A stretch of DNA of 14,110 nucleotides, taken from a virus. Lineage: Duplodnaviria; Heunggongvirae; Uroviricota; Caudoviricetes. Each line of letters begins with the position of its first letter. Position 1 is the stretch's first letter. Of this stretch, positions 1 to 13,415 are shown one piece after another. The notes under the pieces are model-generated. The model was given only the letters and a program-made list of their open reading frames with translations, ran no database searches and had not been told where the DNA came from. Location of the stretch: IMG/VR virus record IMGVR_UViG_2541047932_000008, one strand, 5' to 3'. The position numbers and the translations under genes are program-made.

Positions 1-1116
1 ACGATCCGGAATAATGCTCCTGCGCGCCCATGAACTGAAATGTGTCGGGCGGTTTGATGATACCTGGTTTCCATTCGTTCTCGATGCCGCACCGTAATAT
101 CCTGATGCCGGAATATCCGGATCTTCTGCCGGCGCGTTAGTGGCGGTATTGACGCCGTTACCGTCTGTCATGAAGGGTACAAAATAAACGCCATCACTCT
201 CCCTGTTTTTGTACGCCCCGTAAATGGTGTTGTACTGCGTGCCGTAGGTGTTTTTCCAGTAATACGTCGTGTCACCACAAATCCACGGCACATTTACAGC
301 ACTGCCACCATGACACTGCGCGTTAAACACAGTGAGGTCAGCACGAAACTGCTTCAGCATGGCTGTAAACAGCGCAGGTTGCTGTGCATAGGTGGCGGCG
401 CTCATGTCAAACTCTCCCTGCATCCAGCACACCGCCAGCAACACATTTTTCGGGTTCTTCTGTAATGCAGCTTTAGTGCGCGCAATCAGGTCCTGATATA
501 ACGGTTTACCCACACCCCAGCGTGCCGAATCCTGGCTGGCCCCCGTGTCCGCACTGAATGTCCCCTCCGCGCCCTGGGTGAATGCCGAACCACCACGACA
601 GCATGGTACCAGCAGGATCCCCGCGTTATTCGGGATATACGGGAGCAGTTTTTTGGCAATATGTAAGCCCTGGCCGACACAGCCGTACTGCCCTTTGCTC
701 AGGTCTGCCTTCGGATGATTCAGCGTACTCATATCCTGCACATCATGCAGACAGTGGTCAGCCGGGATGATGTCGTTATACGTACAACTCTCTCCACCCG
801 GAGTTACCGTGCTGCGGCGCGCCAGCTGTTTAATGCGCGGATCCGGAGCATCGTAAGAATCCGGTAACGGAAGCCCTTCACCGTAGGCCATGCCGTTGGA
901 CTGTCCGGCAAGCACAACCACGTAGAACCAGTCCGGCTCAGATGAAGGGCCGACCTGTGGATCTCCTTCAATAGCCACCGCCTGCATCAGTGTGTACGGC
1001 GTAATGGCAACCGGTCCGCCATATGGCTGCCAGCCCTCTTTCAGTTTGTGTGTCAGCTTTTCCGCAAGGTCTGACGGCGACGCCGCCCTGACCACATCGT
1101 AGTGTTTAAATACCAT
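1..1116 (-). CDS. nanS: Prophage sialate O-acetylesterase NanS-p-like, N-terminal 372 codons; C-terminal part lies beyond the window edge
   Basis: ATG at 1116-1114 (minus) opens a frame that stays open to position 1. Translation begins MVFKHYDVVRAASPSDLAEKL (DUF1737-like N-terminus) and contains FYVVVLAGQSNGMAYGEGLP, the GQSN block of SASA/SGNH esterases. Not in the ORF track because it has no stop inside the window. Confidence 0.8.
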   Translation of the reverse strand, partial: MVFKHYDVVRAASPSDLAEKLTHKLKEGWQPYGGPVAITPYTLMQAVAIEGDPQVGPSSEPDWFYVVVLAGQSNGMAYGEGLPLPDSYDAPDPRIKQLARRSTVTPGGESCTYNDIIPADHCLHDVQDMSTLNHPKADLSKGQYGCVGQGLHIAKKLLPYIPNNAGILLVPCCRGGSAFTQGAEGTFSADTGASQDSARWGVGKPLYQDLIARTKAALQKNPKNVLLAVCWMQGEFDMSAATYAQQPALFTAMLKQFRADLTVFNAQCHGGSAVNVPWICGDTTYYWKNTYGTQYNTIYGAYKNRESDGVYFVPFMTDGNGVNTATNAPAEDPDIPASGYYGAASRTNGNQVSSNRPTHFSSWARRSIIPDR

Positions 1117-2204
1117 GACCTTTTCCACCATATAAAGGAACAATAAATTCTTTTCTGATAGAGATTTAAATAAAAATACATTATTTTACAAAAAATAATA
1201 TCCATTACAAAAACATCCGATTTTTTTATATTCCCGCTCATCCTGCTAATTTGTATTACAAAAAATAAAACAACTTGAACCAAAGTGATACAAAATTAGA
1301 AAAGAAAACCCCAGGAAGACAAAGAAAACGATCTTTATCAATGAGTTACACTGATTTATTGACTATGATTTTTAGCAAAACAATCGAAAGCAATGTGTAC
1401 CGAGAAGGTTAAAAGATGGAATGGATAGTTATTGACACAGTGATATGCCCATCAAGCGGAATAACGTTTTCAACTGTATGGTGTAAAATAAAGTTGATAA
1501 TCTGGTATCAGTCAGATGTGTTCCTGCCACCCGGAAGTATTCTCACACCTGTTAACTCAGGTGTGATTATGGATAATAAGCTGCTTCCATTAACCATTTA
1601 CAACGTGACACCATTTAACAGAAAATTCTGGTTCCTTATCAGAAATCAAAAAGAGTGCCCCGGGAATTCAGTTAAAACAAAAATAAAATGCCATAATAGT
1701 ATGTGTGTACTGATGATATGCCCGTATGGATTATATAAGTAACAACATATGAATACATAACAGATAAACTATTGACCTTGAGGCTCATCCATATAAAGAA
1801 GAGCTCTCCGAAGAGGTGTGTATTTGCATGCACATTCCTTTTTCGCTCTATGTCATGACCTCCGGCGACTCTATCCCGGCACCAGCAAACCCGCATCATT
1901 CTCGTTTCCGGTGTCTCTAAAACCACAGCACACCTGCCCCCCGCTGAGGGAGGGAAGCACTGTATCCGTACACTCAGCAACAGAAATACCACCCGCTCAC
2001 TGCGCTACATATCAGCAACAATTTTATACCCGAACATTATCATTCAACAGCATGGTTCACAACAACATCATAACCCAGGAAACGAGAATCAGATCAAAAA
2101 AACAGAAATTTTACATGAAAAATACTGTTTATTAATATTGATAGCGTCGTACCACAAAATACGATGAATTATCCCTGAACTTAACATTAATGCCAGTATG
2201 TATT

Positions 2205-2224
2205 GCCCGCTGGTATCAGCGGGC
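2205..2224. other. GC-rich stem-loop (8-bp stem GCCCGCTG/CAGCGGGC, loop GTAT) about 110 bp beyond the methyltransferase stop
   Basis: Perfect inverted repeat at 2205-2212 and 2217-2224. Followed on the plus strand by GCTTTAAG (short T-run) and on the minus strand by AATACATAC, so terminator function is uncertain on either strand. Confidence 0.3.
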
Positions 2225-2335
2225 GCTTTAAGAGATCGTATTCATGACTACCTGGGAAAAAGCTATTTTACTATTGTCAGTTTTTATTGCAGCCTTATCT
2301 GTCTACTTGCTTCACAGCCTGAACTGACCATATCT

Positions 2336-3412
2336 TTATCCATCCTTCCCGTCATCAATTGAGCATGTAAGGATGTGACTAATCTCCTTAACGGTCTGCG
2401 CAAAACGTTCTGCCTCCAGTTCAACACCAGTTGCACGACGCCCGAGCGCCATAGCTGCTTTTATGGTTGAGCCAGAACCCATGAAAAAATCCGCCACCAG
2501 GTCACCCGGACGACTGCTCGCGCAGATTATCTGCCGCAGCATTTCTGCCGGTTTTTCGCACGGATGTTTCCCTGGATAGTACTGCACCGGTTTATGCGTC
2601 CACACATCGGTGTACGGCACCTGCACCGTCACACCGAAATACCGCCGCAAATTTTTATATTCACTCAGCAGTTCCATATACTGCCGGTTCAGCTCACTGT
2701 ATGTGCTGACCAGTTGGTAATGGGACTTTTCCAGTTCTCCCCGCTGATGTTTCTCTTCTGCCACCCGGGCAAACAGCGACTGTAATTTCAGATAATCGCT
2801 TTCGTTCGGTAGCTGCCACTGACTGGCACTGAACCAGTGCGACACCATGTTTTTCTTTCCTGTGGCATCTGCAATCTGTTTTGCCGTTATCCCAAGAGCA
2901 GCACGCGCATCACGAAAGTAAGAAATCAGCGGGGCCATCACATGCTGTTTCAGTGCCCTGCCCTTCGCCTCATCGCCATCATCTTTCGGACGATACGGCC
3001 CCTGATAATGTTCCGCGAACAGAATGCGTTCTGTGGCCGGAAAATACGCCCGCAGGCTTTCCTTGTTGCACCCGTTCCAGCGTCCGGACGGCTTCGCCCA
3101 GATAATATGGTTCAGCACACTGAAGCGTTCACGCATCATGATTTCGATATCAGATGCCAGGCGATGACCACAGAACAGGTAAAGACTTCCGGCAGGTTTC
3201 AGCACCCGCCAGAACTGCGCCAGACACTGGTCCAGCCACTTCAGGTAATCATCGTCGCCCTTCCACTGGTTATCCCAGCCCTCAGGCTTCACTTTAAAGT
3301 ACGGCGGGTCCGTGACTATCAGGTCAACAGAATTTTCGGGTAACGACCGGATAAATTCCAGGCAATCAGCGTTGATTAACTTACAACTGGATATTTTTAC
3401 AGTATTAAGCAT
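2336..3412 (-). CDS. Orphan DNA N6-adenine methyltransferase, beta-class (motif IV before motif I)
   Basis: 358-aa ORF. DLIVTDPPY (catalytic DPPY motif) near the N-terminus and DLVADFFMGSGSTIKAAMALGRRATGVE (FxGxG AdoMet-binding motif) near the C-terminus. No adjacent restriction endonuclease ORF. Confidence 0.88.
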   Translation of the reverse strand: MLNTVKISSCKLINADCLEFIRSLPENSVDLIVTDPPYFKVKPEGWDNQWKGDDDYLKWLDQCLAQFWRVLKPAGSLYLFCGHRLASDIEIMMRERFSVLNHIIWAKPSGRWNGCNKESLRAYFPATERILFAEHYQGPYRPKDDGDEAKGRALKQHVMAPLISYFRDARAALGITAKQIADATGKKNMVSHWFSASQWQLPNESDYLKLQSLFARVAEEKHQRGELEKSHYQLVSTYSELNRQYMELLSEYKNLRRYFGVTVQVPYTDVWTHKPVQYYPGKHPCEKPAEMLRQIICASSRPGDLVADFFMGSGSTIKAAMALGRRATGVELEAERFAQTVKEISHILTCSIDDGKDG

Positions 3413-3547
3413 GGATCATTAAGCCTGTCTCTGATAGGCTCATTCTGCTTTTGCGCAAAGCAGTGGGCCTGAGGTTTGCTTGTGAACCCAACGCATGAGC
3501 AGATGGCTGGTGGGTGCCCCTAACACCCACCAGCCGCCCATTTACCA

Positions 3548-3576
3548 CAAATAAAAAAGCCTTCACTGCGGAAGGC
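3548..3576 (-). terminator. Rho-independent terminator after the small ORF
   Basis: Minus strand reads GCCTTC-CGCAGT-GAAGGC (plus 3559-3576) followed by TTTTTTATTT. The TGA stop of the small ORF lies in the loop. Confidence 0.7.
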
Positions 3577-3760
3577 GTCTGTAACAACCGAACTGATAGT
3601 CTGCCAGACCCGCCATAACCAGCTGAGTCAGTATTAACTGGCAGCGTTCGCGTGAAAGGTAAGTATTCTGCGCTATCTCCCCGACTGTCGCCGGTTCGGT
3701 AACGCTTAATTCATTAAACACCACTCTGGCGGTTTCTGTCATATCCTGCTGTTTTAGCAT
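3563..3760 (-). CDS. Small hypothetical protein (65 aa) with helix-turn-helix-like segment
   Basis: ATG at 3760 preceded by AAGGGAAAAAGA. Product MLKQQDMTETARVVFNELSVTEPATVGEIAQNTYLSRERCQLILTQLVMAGLADYQFGCYRRLPQ. The ORF track's 106-aa version starts upstream with no ribosome-binding site. Confidence 0.5.
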   Translation of the reverse strand: MLKQQDMTETARVVFNELSVTEPATVGEIAQNTYLSRERCQLILTQLVMAGLADYQFGCYRRLPQ

Positions 3761-3883
3761 GTCTTTTTCCCTTTTCCGGTTAACGTGACACACCAATAAC
3801 TCTTGTCGAAAAAGCCAGCAAGCTGAAAGAACGGTATTAATAACCACCAGCGAATTTATTGCGCTACTGTATATTGCGGACAC

Positions 3884-3906
3884 AAAAAAACCACCTTCCG
3901 GTGGCT
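3884..3906 (-). terminator. tR'-like intrinsic terminator about 200 nt downstream of the Q-like gene
   Basis: Minus strand reads AGCCACC-GGAA-GGTGGTT followed by a T7 run (plus 3884-3890 is A7). Unidirectional. Confidence 0.55.
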
Positions 3907-4030
3907 TCCTTGTGCGAAAAAAACTTGCGTTTCGCCTCGCGATACAGCTTTGCGAAGCTTATACGGATTGAAGCAGTTTATTGATCAGTTTGCAACATTT
4001 TTCTCTGTAACAAAAGCCATGCGCATGGGG

Positions 4031-4066
4031 GCATATAACATAAATTCAGATACCCCCAACCATTGA
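4031..4066 (-). promoter_or_regulatory. Candidate late promoter (pR'-like) with possible Q-utilisation region
   Basis: Minus strand reads TTGATCAATGGTTGGGGGTATCTGAATTTATGTTATATGC, containing an extended -10-like TGtTATATg with TTGGGG/TTGATC as possible -35. Lies 35-70 nt downstream of the Q stop and upstream of the tR'-like terminator. Sequence reading only. Confidence 0.3.
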
Positions 4067-4099
4067 TCAATTCGGCGTCTGCACGTAACCAACGACCAA

Positions 4100-4537
4100 T
4101 CAGGATGATCTGCATTTAACCTTTCGGCCATTTTCAGTTTGCTCATTCCCCCGTCCTTCGTACCTTTGCCGGAGAACATTGATTAGCCCGGGATATTCCC
4201 CAAGCACCTCACTGATAACGCGATCAATAATCAACGCCTCTGTGTCTGTACAATGTGACAACCAGCTCTTCTGCTTTCCTCTTGTCATATCCCGAAAAAA
4301 TGCCTCAAGTTCCGGTTTTTCCAGCCCGGATTTCTTCATTCTGCGTAAAACCTCATTAACTGCTGTTTTCGTCAGCTTTTTCGAAACCAGTAACCGGTTA
4401 AACATATTTCCGGATTTACCCCCACCGATATACGACCACCGCCCCCACATCCGTAATTTCCCCTGGATCCAGACTGCTTCCAGCGTGTTCAGGCGTAAAT
4501 GTTCGCCGCTTTTGCCTGTAATTTCCGGATATATCAT
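4100..4537 (-). CDS. Putative late antiterminator Q-like protein (about 145 aa)
   Basis: ATG at 4537 (the ORF track's 4549 start is GTG). Sits immediately after rusA and before the promoter/terminator module and cargo genes, the canonical Q position. The family assignment rests on position and size only. Confidence 0.55.
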   Translation of the reverse strand: MIYPEITGKSGEHLRLNTLEAVWIQGKLRMWGRWSYIGGGKSGNMFNRLLVSKKLTKTAVNEVLRRMKKSGLEKPELEAFFRDMTRGKQKSWLSHCTDTEALIIDRVISEVLGEYPGLINVLRQRYEGRGNEQTENGRKVKCRSS

Positions 4538-4545
4538 ATTTACGC

Positions 4546-4905
4546 TCACTCACTCTCAATTTTGTAAATCTTCACACCCAGCCGTCCACCAGATACTGGC
4601 TGACCACGTACAATATTGATTTCATCAAACTGCTCGTCATCAATGAGCACTCCCGCATGCGTCAGCGCATCCAGCGGTGCTTTCAGAATGTTGTCCAGGT
4701 CGCGACGACGCTTATCCGGTGGCTCTGCAATCACCTTTATCGCCAGCCTTCCGGACAGGCTTAATTTCAGCCGCTGCTGGCGAACAATAAGCGCCACAGC
4801 CCGGCGATAACGCTCACCGGCTTTTGATACAAAATATGTGCTGCCACGACGTCGCCAGTAGGTGTTCACCGTCGGCGGGTAAGGCAAAACAAACTCTATG
4901 AGCAT
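4546..4905 (-). CDS. rusA: Holliday junction resolvase RusA
   Basis: 119 aa with the RusA catalytic block PPDKRRRDLDNILKAPLDALTHAGVLIDDEQ. RBS AAGAGGTGA before ATG 4905. Stop is 8 nt upstream of the Q-like start. Confidence 0.9.
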   Translation of the reverse strand: MLIEFVLPYPPTVNTYWRRRGSTYFVSKAGERYRRAVALIVRQQRLKLSLSGRLAIKVIAEPPDKRRRDLDNILKAPLDALTHAGVLIDDEQFDEINIVRGQPVSGGRLGVKIYKIESE

Positions 4906-4917
4906 CAGTCACCTCTT

Positions 4918-5967
4918 TTACCCGAGCACGCCAGTCGCAAAGGCGTGATCAAGAAAACGAAAAATTAAATCAACCTGGGAACCATGCTTTTCTTCGAACG
5001 CCAGCGGATCCGCATGAAGCTCGTTGTGATGCTCCCGACACAGCGGTAGCGTGAAAATATCGTGGGATTTTGTTCCCATTCCACCCTGACCATGACCAAT
5101 CAGATGATGAGGATCGTCCGCTGGCTTACCACAACACGCACACGGCTGTGTCTTTACCCAGCGTGTGTATTTCTCATTTACCCAGCGGCGACGTTTAGGT
5201 CGTTTCATGAAGGATTCCGGAGACTCCGGATCAACGGCAATGCTGACCACCGTCTTTTCCTGTGGTGGGTTCTGTTGCTGGTGGGTGTGAGGCGGTAGCG
5301 CAATATTTTTTGTGCGCTGCTTCAGTATGCTGGTGGCGGTCTGTTCTCCCGGTATGATGTCGCTTTCACGGTATACGGAGCGGATTTTTTCCGCCGGTAA
5401 TCCCAGAGAACGACGCGCTACTGCCTCAGGTAGTGCATCCACCACCTGATTGCAGGCCGCCCACCAGGATAATTCGGCCAGCGATAACTCCCTCTCCTGC
5501 GTGCCGCTTATTGCGTGACGGATGACGTCAATCATCCAGGCAACCAGATTCTGCTGAGCAAGTTGATCGAGTGATTCTGATGTCTGGTCGCGCAGCTGGT
5601 TGTCACAGTGCCAGCACAACACCATCGCGCCGGTACCGTAACGGTGAATGACTGTTTCGCTGTGATGATAATCGCCGTGTGGCCACTGGCAGGATTTCAC
5701 GTGACGTAATAACCAGTCAGACAGTGCGCCAGCGCCGCCAGCAGCACGAATCACACGCTCATCGCTGAAAAATGGCAGTAATGATTTATCCTCCGCCAGC
5801 GGCTGGCGAACGGCAGGGACGACTCCGGACGGCAGACCGCGCATGCTTTTCGGTTCAGACTCCACCAGCACCCTGTCGCCATGAAATACCCGCATGGATT
5901 CACGGCTTGGCTTAACGATAACCACCCCGAGTTCCGGTACCAGAACAGGTCGAAGTAATACCCGCAC
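4918..5967 (-). CDS. YdfU-like / DUF968-type prophage protein with two Cys/His clusters
   Basis: 349 aa, GTG start at 5967 preceded by TGGAGGTAAC. Contains CQWPHGDYHH...CWHCDNQ and C-terminal CACCGKPADDPHHLIGHG...CREHHNELH (HNH/zinc-binding-like). Position between small nin-like genes and rusA-Q mirrors ydfU in the Qin prophage. Confidence 0.75.
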   Translation of the reverse strand: MRVLLRPVLVPELGVVIVKPSRESMRVFHGDRVLVESEPKSMRGLPSGVVPAVRQPLAEDKSLLPFFSDERVIRAAGGAGALSDWLLRHVKSCQWPHGDYHHSETVIHRYGTGAMVLCWHCDNQLRDQTSESLDQLAQQNLVAWMIDVIRHAISGTQERELSLAELSWWAACNQVVDALPEAVARRSLGLPAEKIRSVYRESDIIPGEQTATSILKQRTKNIALPPHTHQQQNPPQEKTVVSIAVDPESPESFMKRPKRRRWVNEKYTRWVKTQPCACCGKPADDPHHLIGHGQGGMGTKSHDIFTLPLCREHHNELHADPLAFEEKHGSQVDLIFRFLDHAFATGVLG

Positions 5968-6695: not shown

Positions 6696-6851
6696 TTACT
6701 CCTCAGGTTCGTAAGCTGTGAAGACAGCGACCTCCGTCTGGCCGGTTCGGATTCGTACCTCGCAGAGGTCTTTCCTCGTTACCAGTGCCGTCACAATGAC
6801 GGTTAAACAGATGACGATCAGGGCGATTAGCATCGCCTTTTGCTGCTTCAT
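6696..6851 (-). CDS. hokD: Hok/Gef-family type I toxin (HokD/RelF-like, 51 aa)
   Basis: MKQQKAMLIALIVICLTVIVTALVTRKDLCEVRIRTGQTEVAVFTAYEPEE, which matches HokD as I recall it. SD AAGGAG 7 nt before ATG 6851. The ORF track's 70-aa version (from 6908) is an in-frame upstream extension. Confidence 0.85.
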   Translation of the reverse strand: MKQQKAMLIALIVICLTVIVTALVTRKDLCEVRIRTGQTEVAVFTAYEPEE

Positions 6852-7026
6852 AGCCTGCTTCTCCTTGCCTTTCGGCACGTAAGAGGCTAACCTACGTGTG
6901 TAGAGCATAGATATGGCCTCAGATTAATGTTAAGCGTCTTGCCGGACGCGTAATGTTAACTGGGGCTTTTCTCTATCTGCCGTTGGTGTTCATGCCCGAG
7001 GCAGATAGCCTCAAGCACCCGCAGCA

Positions 7027-12730: not shown

Positions 12731-13156
12731 TCAATGTACTGCCACAGCATTTCCTGCCGGGCCACCACGGTTCATCTGATTGAAACCGGCGATTGCCACT
12801 GCGACAAAATCATCAGCGTCTCTCACCAGTCGCTCCCGCGTCTCCACCAGCTCCCGAAAATAAGCTGAACTGTGGCTGCGCATTCTGGCCACCAGCAAAG
12901 GTGGCATTGCCTTTTCGATCGCTGGTAACAACGCCTGAATTTTTTCAACTGCATCAGGGGTGTCTTTCTCTACCCAGCGGAAAATTTTCTGTGTATTGCG
13001 AGCCAGGGCTTCCGGATGGCTGTCGTCATACAGTTCAGGAAACGTCATACCCAACTCAAAATAAGCCTGGGTTATTCCAGCTGCTGGAACTTTTTCGCCA
13101 TCAGGACGCGCCCAGGCATTCATCGCCATGCGGATGTGTTCATGCTTGATTTTCAT
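12731..13156 (-). CDS. YdaT-like protein (CII-position gene of Rac-type immunity regions)
   Basis: 141 aa, MKIKHEHIRMAMNAWARPDG.... GGAG lies 8 nt before ATG 13156. The start overlaps the 3' end of the Cro-like gene by 17 nt. Confidence 0.7.
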   Translation of the reverse strand: MKIKHEHIRMAMNAWARPDGEKVPAAGITQAYFELGMTFPELYDDSHPEALARNTQKIFRWVEKDTPDAVEKIQALLPAIEKAMPPLLVARMRSHSSAYFRELVETRERLVRDADDFVAVAIAGFNQMNRGGPAGNAVAVH

Positions 13157-13415
13157 GAATCAACTCCGGTGTATTTGGTGTGTTAGCCTTATCTCCAGCA
13201 GGCAACCCGTCAGTTGGATTCGGGTATAAATCTGGTCGCAATTCATGAGGAGTAACCCCAGTTGCAATATAAATTTGACGAACCCGTTCTCCCGTCGGCA
13301 CTCGACCATTGTATTCATTTGCCCATTTGTGTATTTGAGATGGCCAAGCCCCTATTGCACGCCCTAGCGGACGAATACCACCAGCAATCTTTATTGCTTT
13401 GTCCAATGCTGTCAT
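13140..13415 (-). CDS. Cro-like / YdaS-like small HTH regulator
   Basis: 91 aa, MTALDKAIKIAGGIRPLGRAIGAWPSQIHKWANE.... GGAGG lies 5 nt before ATG 13415. Divergent from the repressor gene. Confidence 0.75.
   Translation of the reverse strand: MTALDKAIKIAGGIRPLGRAIGAWPSQIHKWANEYNGRVPTGERVRQIYIATGVTPHELRPDLYPNPTDGLPAGDKANTPNTPELIHENQA

Follow-up and report, generated by a model that had tools for sequence, protein, structure and literature searches.

Why should a lambdoid prophage carry, behind its Q-like antiterminator gene, an adenine methyltransferase that has no partner endonuclease, and how does the lysogen tolerate it? The question was raised by a stretch of Caudoviricetes DNA of 14,110 nucleotides (IMG/VR record IMGVR_UViG_2541047932_000008; the window, hereafter, is this whole stretch), in which an initial annotation made from the sequence alone had pointed to a methyltransferase and a small helix-turn-helix protein at positions 2336 to 3760. 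Its coordinates and description were correct, only the strand (minus) having gone unstated; its interpretation stood in part, the orphan enzyme and the late position being retained and the equivalence to the stx locus and the controller role being abandoned. The window belongs to an Escherichia coli lambdoid prophage, 99.8% identical to a prophage of the O39:NM strain F8704-2, and its minus strand carries the replication, nin and late genes. We consider it probable that the module is the standard first unit of the late operon, encoding a non-specific enzyme of the M.EcoGII type that is off in the lysogen, is made after induction and protects the progeny. Two elements are central to this study:

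2336-3412, minus strand: beta-class N6-adenine DNA methyltransferase of 358 amino acids, PF01555, orthologue of M.EcoGII/M.EcoGI
3413-3546, minus strand: structured leader RNA of the methyltransferase, about 135 nucleotides, ending with UGAUCC (3413-3418) right before the AUG

The methyltransferase and its place in the late operon

The 358-residue protein matched the N6_N4_Mtase family PF01555 at 1.1e-42 (146.9 bits against a cut-off of 26.7) and was recognized by PADLOC as MTase_II at 3.4e-160. The motifs DPPY (residues 35-38) and FMGSGS (310-315) stand in the beta-class order, and both are invariant in the family alignment. As a reference for M.EcoGII we used the sequence given in Supplementary Table S1 of PMC11551740, machine-read from the PDF and evidently wrong at a few places; the window protein shares 92% identity with it. 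IMG/VR contig L109 encodes a protein of 349 amino acids that is 98% identical to this published text and differs from it almost solely at the suspect positions. The window enzyme shares 327 of these 349 residues (94%) with zero gaps. Four substitutions fall in the recognition region (residues 160-237, a four-helix domain with approximate bounds), and by this high identity over its full length the protein belongs to the M.EcoGII/M.EcoGI family. Furthermore, the prophage context is shared: the L109 gene is preceded by the same leader and by the same small open reading frame (ORF) at a distance of 149 nucleotides. A sequence search of the PDB returned no M.EcoGII structure; the top match, a methyltransferase of 249 amino acids (3e-25), aligned in the catalytic halves only.

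M.EcoGII and its 95%-identical paralogue M.EcoGI, from a prophage of E. coli O104:H4 C227-11, methylate adenines whatever the surrounding sequence; M.EcoGII needs no partner for its activity in vitro, neither enzyme is expressed in the C227-11 lysogen, and constitutive expression of M.EcoGII is deleterious (Murray et al. 2018, PMC5778455). The reconstructed ancestors of the clade keep the non-specific activity (PMC11551740). Homologues with 92-93% amino-acid similarity in O111 Shiga toxin-producing E. coli are listed as 'nonspecific' and gave no detectable motif in lysogens (PMC6602927), and a 99% M.EcoGI homologue of ST131 was predicted to be inactive from reverse transcription PCR (PMC4659465). 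Because of the 92-94% identity to M.EcoGII and M.EcoGII-type proteins, the window enzyme is predicted to methylate adenine in any sequence context, and the initial statement that its target specificity was unknown was too cautious.

A role in host epigenetic modification had also been proposed. A sequence-specific orphan methyltransferase expressed in the lysogen could reprogram host expression as a form of lysogenic conversion; regulatory effects are known for some orphan phage methyltransferases, and the window protein differs from M.EcoGII in its C-terminus. We nevertheless hold this to be very improbable: the 94% identity to an M.EcoGII-type enzyme includes the recognition region, the homologues leave no methylation signal in lysogens, and the gene lies behind two terminators and lacks a Shine-Dalgarno sequence. 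A host epigenetic role is indeed unlikely for an enzyme of this type, silent in lysogens and harmful when expressed (PMC5778455).

The 14-kb window contains no restriction endonuclease, and none adjoins the module in those related loci for which gene tables were examined. Around the methyltransferase lie the Q-like gene, the winged-helix ORF, iraM and a SASA-family esterase, and PADLOC matched the methyltransferase alone. The PF01555 match, the motif order and the missing partner all agree with the description of an orphan beta-class N6-adenine methyltransferase.

This enzyme adds one more copy to a family that is well known and very common. The 1425-bp segment of small ORF, spacer and methyltransferase was covered to at least 80% in 1914 of 5426 complete E. 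coli genomes, in up to seven places per genome. The same trio, at a spacing of about 150 nucleotides, lies behind three different Q families in prophages of Klebsiella, Salmonella and Buttiauxella, and it is also present in sequenced E. coli phages. In phages and prophages of E. coli, Klebsiella, Salmonella and Serratia it stands between Q (families PF06323, PF06576 and PF06530) and the lysis genes; for the Buttiauxella and Vibrio loci, one of these two neighbours was not identified.

The module had been placed at a locus equivalent to that of the stx toxin genes. This description is imprecise. The order in Stx2a_WGPS2 (L003, 5653-7351) is Q, small ORF, methyltransferase, ileZ-argN-argO, stx2AB and esterase, so that module and stx are both present, the module between Q and the tRNA-stx block; Stx2c phages carry the methyltransferase too. 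Since the Stx2a and Stx2c phages carry both, the module does not take the place of stx. It opens the late operon as a constant unit, and the slot for variable morons comes after the methyltransferase. This slot is filled by iraM in the window, by hicAB in Klebsiella, by a toxin-antitoxin-like pair in PPyecE_EH1910, and by tRNAs and stx in the Stx2a and Stx2c phages. Remnants of deletions were also found, namely a truncated small ORF beside a TerB fragment and the 3' end of the methyltransferase beside tRNAs. The latter was seen in another E. coli prophage (L296, 2675-3261), where the 3' remnant alone is left. Together with the order in WGPS2, this remnant suggests that the Q-tRNA-stx arrangements devoid of the enzyme may be deletion derivatives.

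A conserved structured RNA before the methyltransferase start

A cross-genus alignment revealed that the non-coding spacer in front of the methyltransferase is better conserved than the flanking coding DNA. The leader was studied in 80 diverse loci from genomes of many Enterobacterales genera, whose methyltransferases are 62-92% identical, and in 80 viral contigs. With a nucleotide profile, 146 of 175 loci were found to have a leader of about 138 nucleotides that runs up to the ATG of the methyltransferase. The identity of the window leader to its relatives, 57-83%, tracks the amino-acid identity of the methyltransferase (62-83%), whereas the four-fold degenerate sites of the methyltransferase are saturated, with 27-53% identity.

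RNAalifold, applied to 40 non-redundant leaders, folded a helix P1 enclosing the hairpins P2 and P3. The complete model has five helices, all on the minus strand:

3536-3540/3464-3468: P1
3505-3535: P2
3475-3503: P3
3445-3463: P4
3420-3442: P5

This model was tested on a MAFFT alignment, which was not fitted to structure. Paired cells amounted to 85.5%, as compared with 27-42% if the partners were slid by one to three columns. Changes on both sides of a pair occurred at 20 pairs, while shuffled alignments gave 8.6 +/- 1.7 (none of 500 reached 20) and the slid controls 7-13. In P2, 10 of the 12 pairs covary, and the stems of Vibrio, Yersinia, Providencia and Serratia are wholly different in sequence. 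One pair of P3 occurs as C-G, U-A, A-U and U-G; P1 is almost invariant, with one double change from G-C to A-U. The G-U wobbles are compatible with the sense strand only, that is, with the late transcript. The fold of the leader has a z-score of -4.06.

A covariance model gave exactly one strong match per locus, always in sense orientation and adjoining the start of the methyltransferase. In the window the match covered 3407-3550 on the minus strand, with 121 bits and an E-value of about 4e-31. The alignment fitted to the model reached 86.6% pairing and 23 covarying pairs. The shortened leaders of Xenorhabdus and Photorhabdus went undetected by the model. In these genera (L062-L093), the shortened leader, at 76-100 nucleotides before the methyltransferase, retains only AAAUGG and the first hairpin and goes on into a different, locally conserved sequence.

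The association was also followed from the opposite direction by scanning IMG/VR for the most conserved 14 specified bases of the leader. The scan yielded 120 loci, 97 of them with a methyltransferase start 74-76 nucleotides downstream (49 in two). Five others had no room for the gene, 17 were chance matches with no leader and one was a contig with two leaders. Thus, 97 of about 98 genuine occurrences of the leader sit at a methyltransferase start, and the association is exclusive. A scan of positions 1000-4700 against Rfam 15 at E <= 1 had a sole match, to P26 on the opposite strand (24 bits, gathering threshold 36), which we attribute to chance. Conservation above neutrality, compensatory changes, a fixed position relative to the gene and strand specificity are the general marks of a structured cis-regulatory RNA, and the leader shows all four. 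We therefore regard the spacer as a conserved structured RNA, found with M.EcoGII-type methyltransferases throughout Enterobacterales and in a Vibrio phage. Four candidates in an automatically predicted catalogue of phage structured RNAs from IMG/VR are described there as typically lying directly upstream of 'DNA N-6-adenine-methyltransferase' genes (PMC10690425); none of them is in Rfam 15, and the leader may already be among them.

Conservation of the spacer could alternatively reflect a function as DNA, be it as operator, as internal promoter or as a Chi site acting against RecBCD. In the enteric copies, the 5' arm of P2 does not vary and contains Chi, GCTGGTGG, and a GATC stands just before the ATG. 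Moreover, Chi is strongly enriched in the window, with nine copies of GCTGGTGG where shuffled sequences gave an expectation of 0.53:

Chi sites on the plus strand: 3506-3513, 5277-5284, 5329-5336
Chi sites on the minus strand: 3527-3534, 3844-3851, 5862-5869, 12844-12851, 12889-12896, 13378-13385

However, Serratia, Yersinia, Providencia, Lonsdalea and Vibrio replace the Chi arm by unrelated sequence and keep the helix by changes on both sides; the wobbles fit the sense transcript only, P1 and P3 covary too, and no promoter was called. A function of the spacer as DNA is, in our judgement, improbable. Chi as the main constraint on the invariant P2 arm was rejected because the non-enteric copies that have lost Chi retain the helix. 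Two of the Chi sites make up the arms of P2, one each; the copy on the sense strand does not vary among enteric relatives and is lost in Serratia, Yersinia and Vibrio. Two further candidates were discarded. A mini-ORF within the leader is interrupted in relatives by indels and early stops, and analogies to nut-like boxA/boxB, RfaH ops and HK022 put elements, judged by eye, suffered from a wrong order or a poor match.

A Shine-Dalgarno sequence of the GGAG type was found at the methyltransferase start in none of the relatives. Instead, a conserved UGAUC(C/U) abuts the AUG. The 3' end of 16S rRNA reads GGAUCACCUCCUUA. UGAUCC can base-pair with the GGAUCA immediately 5' of the anti-Shine-Dalgarno, in the register correct for initiation, and may therefore be a weak, atypical ribosome-binding site. 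P5 ends one or two nucleotides before UGAUCC. In addition, the invariant GGUCA of the P3 loop could pair with the UGAUC before the AUG to form a candidate pseudoknot; an all-against-all scan of alignment columns for extra pairings of this kind was swamped by clade structure and gave no signal either way.

Vibrio phage ST2-1pr encodes, between the leader and the methyltransferase (L006, 3828-3938), a previously unannotated zinc ribbon of 36 amino acids of the Com type (PF10122, 26.2 bits against a cut-off of 22.9). In phage Mu, Com is the translational activator of mom, a late and toxic modification gene. The presence of a Com-type ribbon in ST2-1pr therefore supports the general idea of post-transcriptional control of these enzymes. 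The two systems are alike in a DNA modification that harms the host, in expression that is late-only in Mu and probably so here, and in a message start placed behind RNA structure. They differ in that Mom is not a SAM (S-adenosylmethionine)-dependent methyltransferase and the enteric modules have no Com; transcription would be controlled by Q antitermination here, and is controlled by C and Dam/OxyR in Mu. Our tentative proposal is that the leader constitutes an undescribed class of cis-regulatory RNA, gating the translation of a toxic non-specific methyltransferase in lambdoid phages of Enterobacterales and in Vibrio. The signal for such a gate may be a factor of phage or host, the methyltransferase protein, or a small molecule, for instance SAM or S-adenosylhomocysteine.

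The Q-like gene, the terminators and the small winged-helix protein

The order of elements on the minus strand is DUF968, RusA, Q-like gene, a hairpin with a U7 tail, the ORF of 65 amino acids, a hairpin with a U6 tail, the spacer of 150 nucleotides and the methyltransferase. The elements between RusA and the leader are:

3985-4537, minus strand: Q-like antiterminator gene (DUF1133/Phage_antitermQ), split by a +1 frameshift in a run of five G at 4148-4152
3916-3984, minus strand: spacer between Q and the first terminator, where a late promoter (pR'-like) and a Q-utilisation site are expected by position
3880-3915, minus strand: first intrinsic terminator (tR'-like), whose long hairpin has GCCACC/GGUGG at its core and is followed by U7
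3563-3760, minus strand: stand-alone winged-helix protein of 65 amino acids (phrog_331; 'TrmB family transcriptional regulator' at NCBI), with an AAGGGA Shine-Dalgarno upstream
3550-3576 (hairpin 3559-3576), minus strand: hairpin P0/second terminator, GCCUUC-CGCAGU-GAAGGC followed by U6, from the terminator scan and folding

As the initial annotation had described, the module lies downstream of a Q-like gene and behind two terminator-like hairpins; these are at 3880-3915 (U7) and 3559-3576 (U6). The annotation had also assigned a promoter and a terminator to Q. The terminator was confirmed: the segment 3872-3962 of the minus strand folds with -36.6 kcal/mol and a z-score of -4.64, and none of 200 shuffled sequences was as stable. 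The promoter was not, since a sigma-70 consensus scan of the minus strand over 3400-4000 called neither a late promoter nor an internal promoter of the methyltransferase, and it is placed by position only. The block at about 3916-3962 is nearly identical in a relative whose Q has a diverged C-terminus.

P0 overlaps the TGA stop codon of the small ORF, which falls at the junction of the loop and the 3' arm; a terminating ribosome would therefore melt the hairpin. A hairpin at this position precedes the leader in the related loci, with a T-run in 98 of 141. P0 persists in relatives without the small ORF, some of which keep solely the 3' end of the ORF as P0.

The Q-like gene is present as two ORFs: 4100-4549 covers positions 1-133 of the DUF1133 profile, and 3985-4179 covers positions 129-175. 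When aligned with F8704-2 and 2015C-3107, the window was seen to have one extra G. The version with five G was found in none of the 596 complete E. coli genomes that contain this stretch, the best match being 98.5%. The extra G is either a private inactivating mutation or a sequencing error in the homopolymer. Because of this frameshift, Q-dependent expression from the prophage's own Q is impossible as sequenced, and the module could be switched on only by a compatible Q of another resident prophage. Of the features of a Q-dependent late operon, gene order and terminator are present, whereas an intact Q and a called late promoter are not. The earlier supposition of Q-dependent, induction-specific expression is thereby divided: dependence on the own Q falls if the frameshift is real, whereas restriction of expression to induction is probable, given the silence of close homologues in lysogens (PMC5778455, PMC4659465, PMC6602927).

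The frameshift may also mean that the module is inert cargo in this prophage, the late operon with its methyltransferase never being expressed from its own regulator. The splitting of the DUF1133 gene by G5 in place of G4, the absence of the five-G version from complete genomes and the pseudogenes elsewhere in the prophage of the nearest relative make this a serious possibility, although not the one we favour. One extra base in a homopolymer may be an error of sequencing or assembly, and the methyltransferase, the small ORF and the leader are all intact. Several lambdoid prophages are, moreover, common in E. coli strains, with up to seven copies of the module per genome, and their Q proteins might serve a matching late promoter in trans.

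The small ORF is a genuine gene, narrowly distributed and optional, and it encodes a protein of the general helix-turn-helix type announced by the initial annotation. It is annotated as a coding sequence in RefSeq relatives, matches phrog_331 at 1.4e-37, has 334 close homologues among Enterobacteriaceae and evolves under purifying selection (dN/dS 0.05-0.5, with dS saturated). AlphaFold2 modelled a winged helix of H1-S1-H2-H3-wing topology (pLDDT 83.9). Foldseek matched this model to generic winged helices alone, with E-values of 2e-3 or higher and TM-scores of 0.7-0.79; they include dimerisation winged helices of SAM-dependent O-methyltransferases, IclR/MarR DNA-binding domains and the winged helix of SelB bound to SECIS (selenocysteine insertion sequence) RNA. 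As the matches are generic, no function was assigned from them. The similarity to TrmB is below threshold (18 bits against 25.6). A profile search of 1.84 billion proteins gave 86 small-protein cluster representatives, nearly all of 30-110 amino acids and stand-alone, with no informative fusions. The protein is acidic (isoelectric point 5.1) and its helix 3, at the place of the 'recognition' helix, is largely hydrophobic, which is not expected of a classical DNA-recognition helix. Upstream of its Shine-Dalgarno, at 3770-3800 on the minus strand, a block GGT(A/G)TGTCA(C/T) is invariant in the E. coli, Klebsiella, Salmonella and Buttiauxella copies.

In 143 of 167 loci the small ORF is the gene immediately before the methyltransferase, at 137-154 nucleotides. 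This fixed distance, the embedding of its stop codon in P0 and the winged-helix fold, some members of which bind RNA (SelB-SECIS, TM 0.79), would suit a dedicated regulator of the methyltransferase, either a controller-like transcription factor or a translational factor binding the leader. We find this unlikely. Of 60 non-redundant relatives, 22 lack the ORF, although all of these 22 have retained the methyltransferase and most of them the leader; the best structural matches are O-methyltransferase dimerisation winged helices with weak E-values, and M.EcoGII is active alone in vitro (PMC5778455). The resemblance to the C proteins of restriction-modification systems is that of a small helix-turn-helix-type protein encoded just upstream of a gene of the restriction-modification type. 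C proteins, however, have an Xre-type helix-turn-helix, bind C-boxes and time the endonuclease. Here the protein is an acidic winged helix with no Xre-type motif and no PADLOC match, there is no endonuclease, and about one third of the non-redundant relatives dispense with the ORF, so that the suggested role as controller is unsupported.

The remaining genes of the region are:

4918-5967, minus strand: DUF968 gene
4546-4905, minus strand: RusA gene
1416-1742, plus strand: iraM homologue (RefSeq: anti-adapter protein IraM), downstream of the methyltransferase

The iraM homologue is antisense to the late operon and occupies the moron slot between the methyltransferase and the esterase/lysis genes; Pfam has no model for IraM. 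It is followed by the start of the SASA-family esterase (nanS-p type), which runs off the window, and in a relative prophage the holin-lysozyme cassette comes after this esterase. A tRNA scan of the window found none, and the tRNA block of the Stx phages is therefore absent here. In the nin region, a toxin gene of the Hok/Gef family (hokD type, PF01848) lies at 6696-6908 on the minus strand.

Proposed expression of the module and protection of the progeny

The order of elements suggests how the unit would operate. The Q-like gene is followed by the late promoter and a tR'-type terminator, the optional small winged-helix protein, a hairpin/terminator, the leader and the methyltransferase. In the lysogen, transcription from the late promoter would be halted at the terminators and the methyltransferase would stay off; its message, with a folded leader in front of the start and no ribosome-binding site of the usual kind, would add to the restraint. 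The tR'-type terminator, the second hairpin/terminator and the folded leader with its poor ribosome-binding site would form a layered lock, and only high, terminator-resistant late transcription after induction would yield enzyme. RNA polymerase modified by Q would then read through, and the enzyme would be made together with the lysis and morphogenesis proteins. Replicating phage DNA would become heavily N6-adenine-methylated before packaging, and the progeny genomes would probably be protected in the next host against many restriction systems sensitive to adenine methylation.

This arrangement resembles the pR'-tR' unit of lambda and Stx phages (6S RNA/StxS, PMC7547250), where Q is likewise followed by a short terminated leader transcript and the cargo, stx or lysis genes, is read after Q modification. 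It differs in the Q family, DUF1133, and in the second terminator, protein gene and structured leader inserted between tR' and the methyltransferase, which is here the first large late gene.

Several observations weigh against the proposed reading. The window protein has 358 and not 349 residues, differs from M.EcoGII at about 20 positions and diverges over its C-terminal 10-20 residues. Its specificity is predicted from homology, and its expression and the methylation at this locus are deduced from relatives. The Q-like gene of the window itself is frameshifted, a further difference from M.EcoGII, and the consensus scan detected no late promoter between it and the first terminator. The T-run behind P0 is absent in 43 of 141 relatives (about 30%). 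Concerning the leader, the covariation of P4 and P5 is weak and we infer its regulatory mechanism; the full form is not indispensable, because Xenorhabdus and Photorhabdus have shortened leaders and two loci have none. Even so, expression confined to induction, with protection of the progeny DNA, remains the reading that we judge probable.

As regards the methyltransferase, the finding is an ordinary one: it adds another copy of a very common prophage module, whose representative M.EcoGII is already characterised and sold as a reagent. The recognition of a fixed first late unit, behind which stx, iraM, hicAB and other morons are placed, clarifies the Q-stx architecture of Stx2a and Stx2c phages. 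The leader RNA is the most interesting result and possibly a new feature, as well conserved as the enzyme, covarying, and found with the methyltransferase in nearly all relatives examined. A gate of this kind would explain how the lysogen tolerates a gene whose product methylates every adenine, and the leader could offer a compact and tight off-switch for toxic genes.

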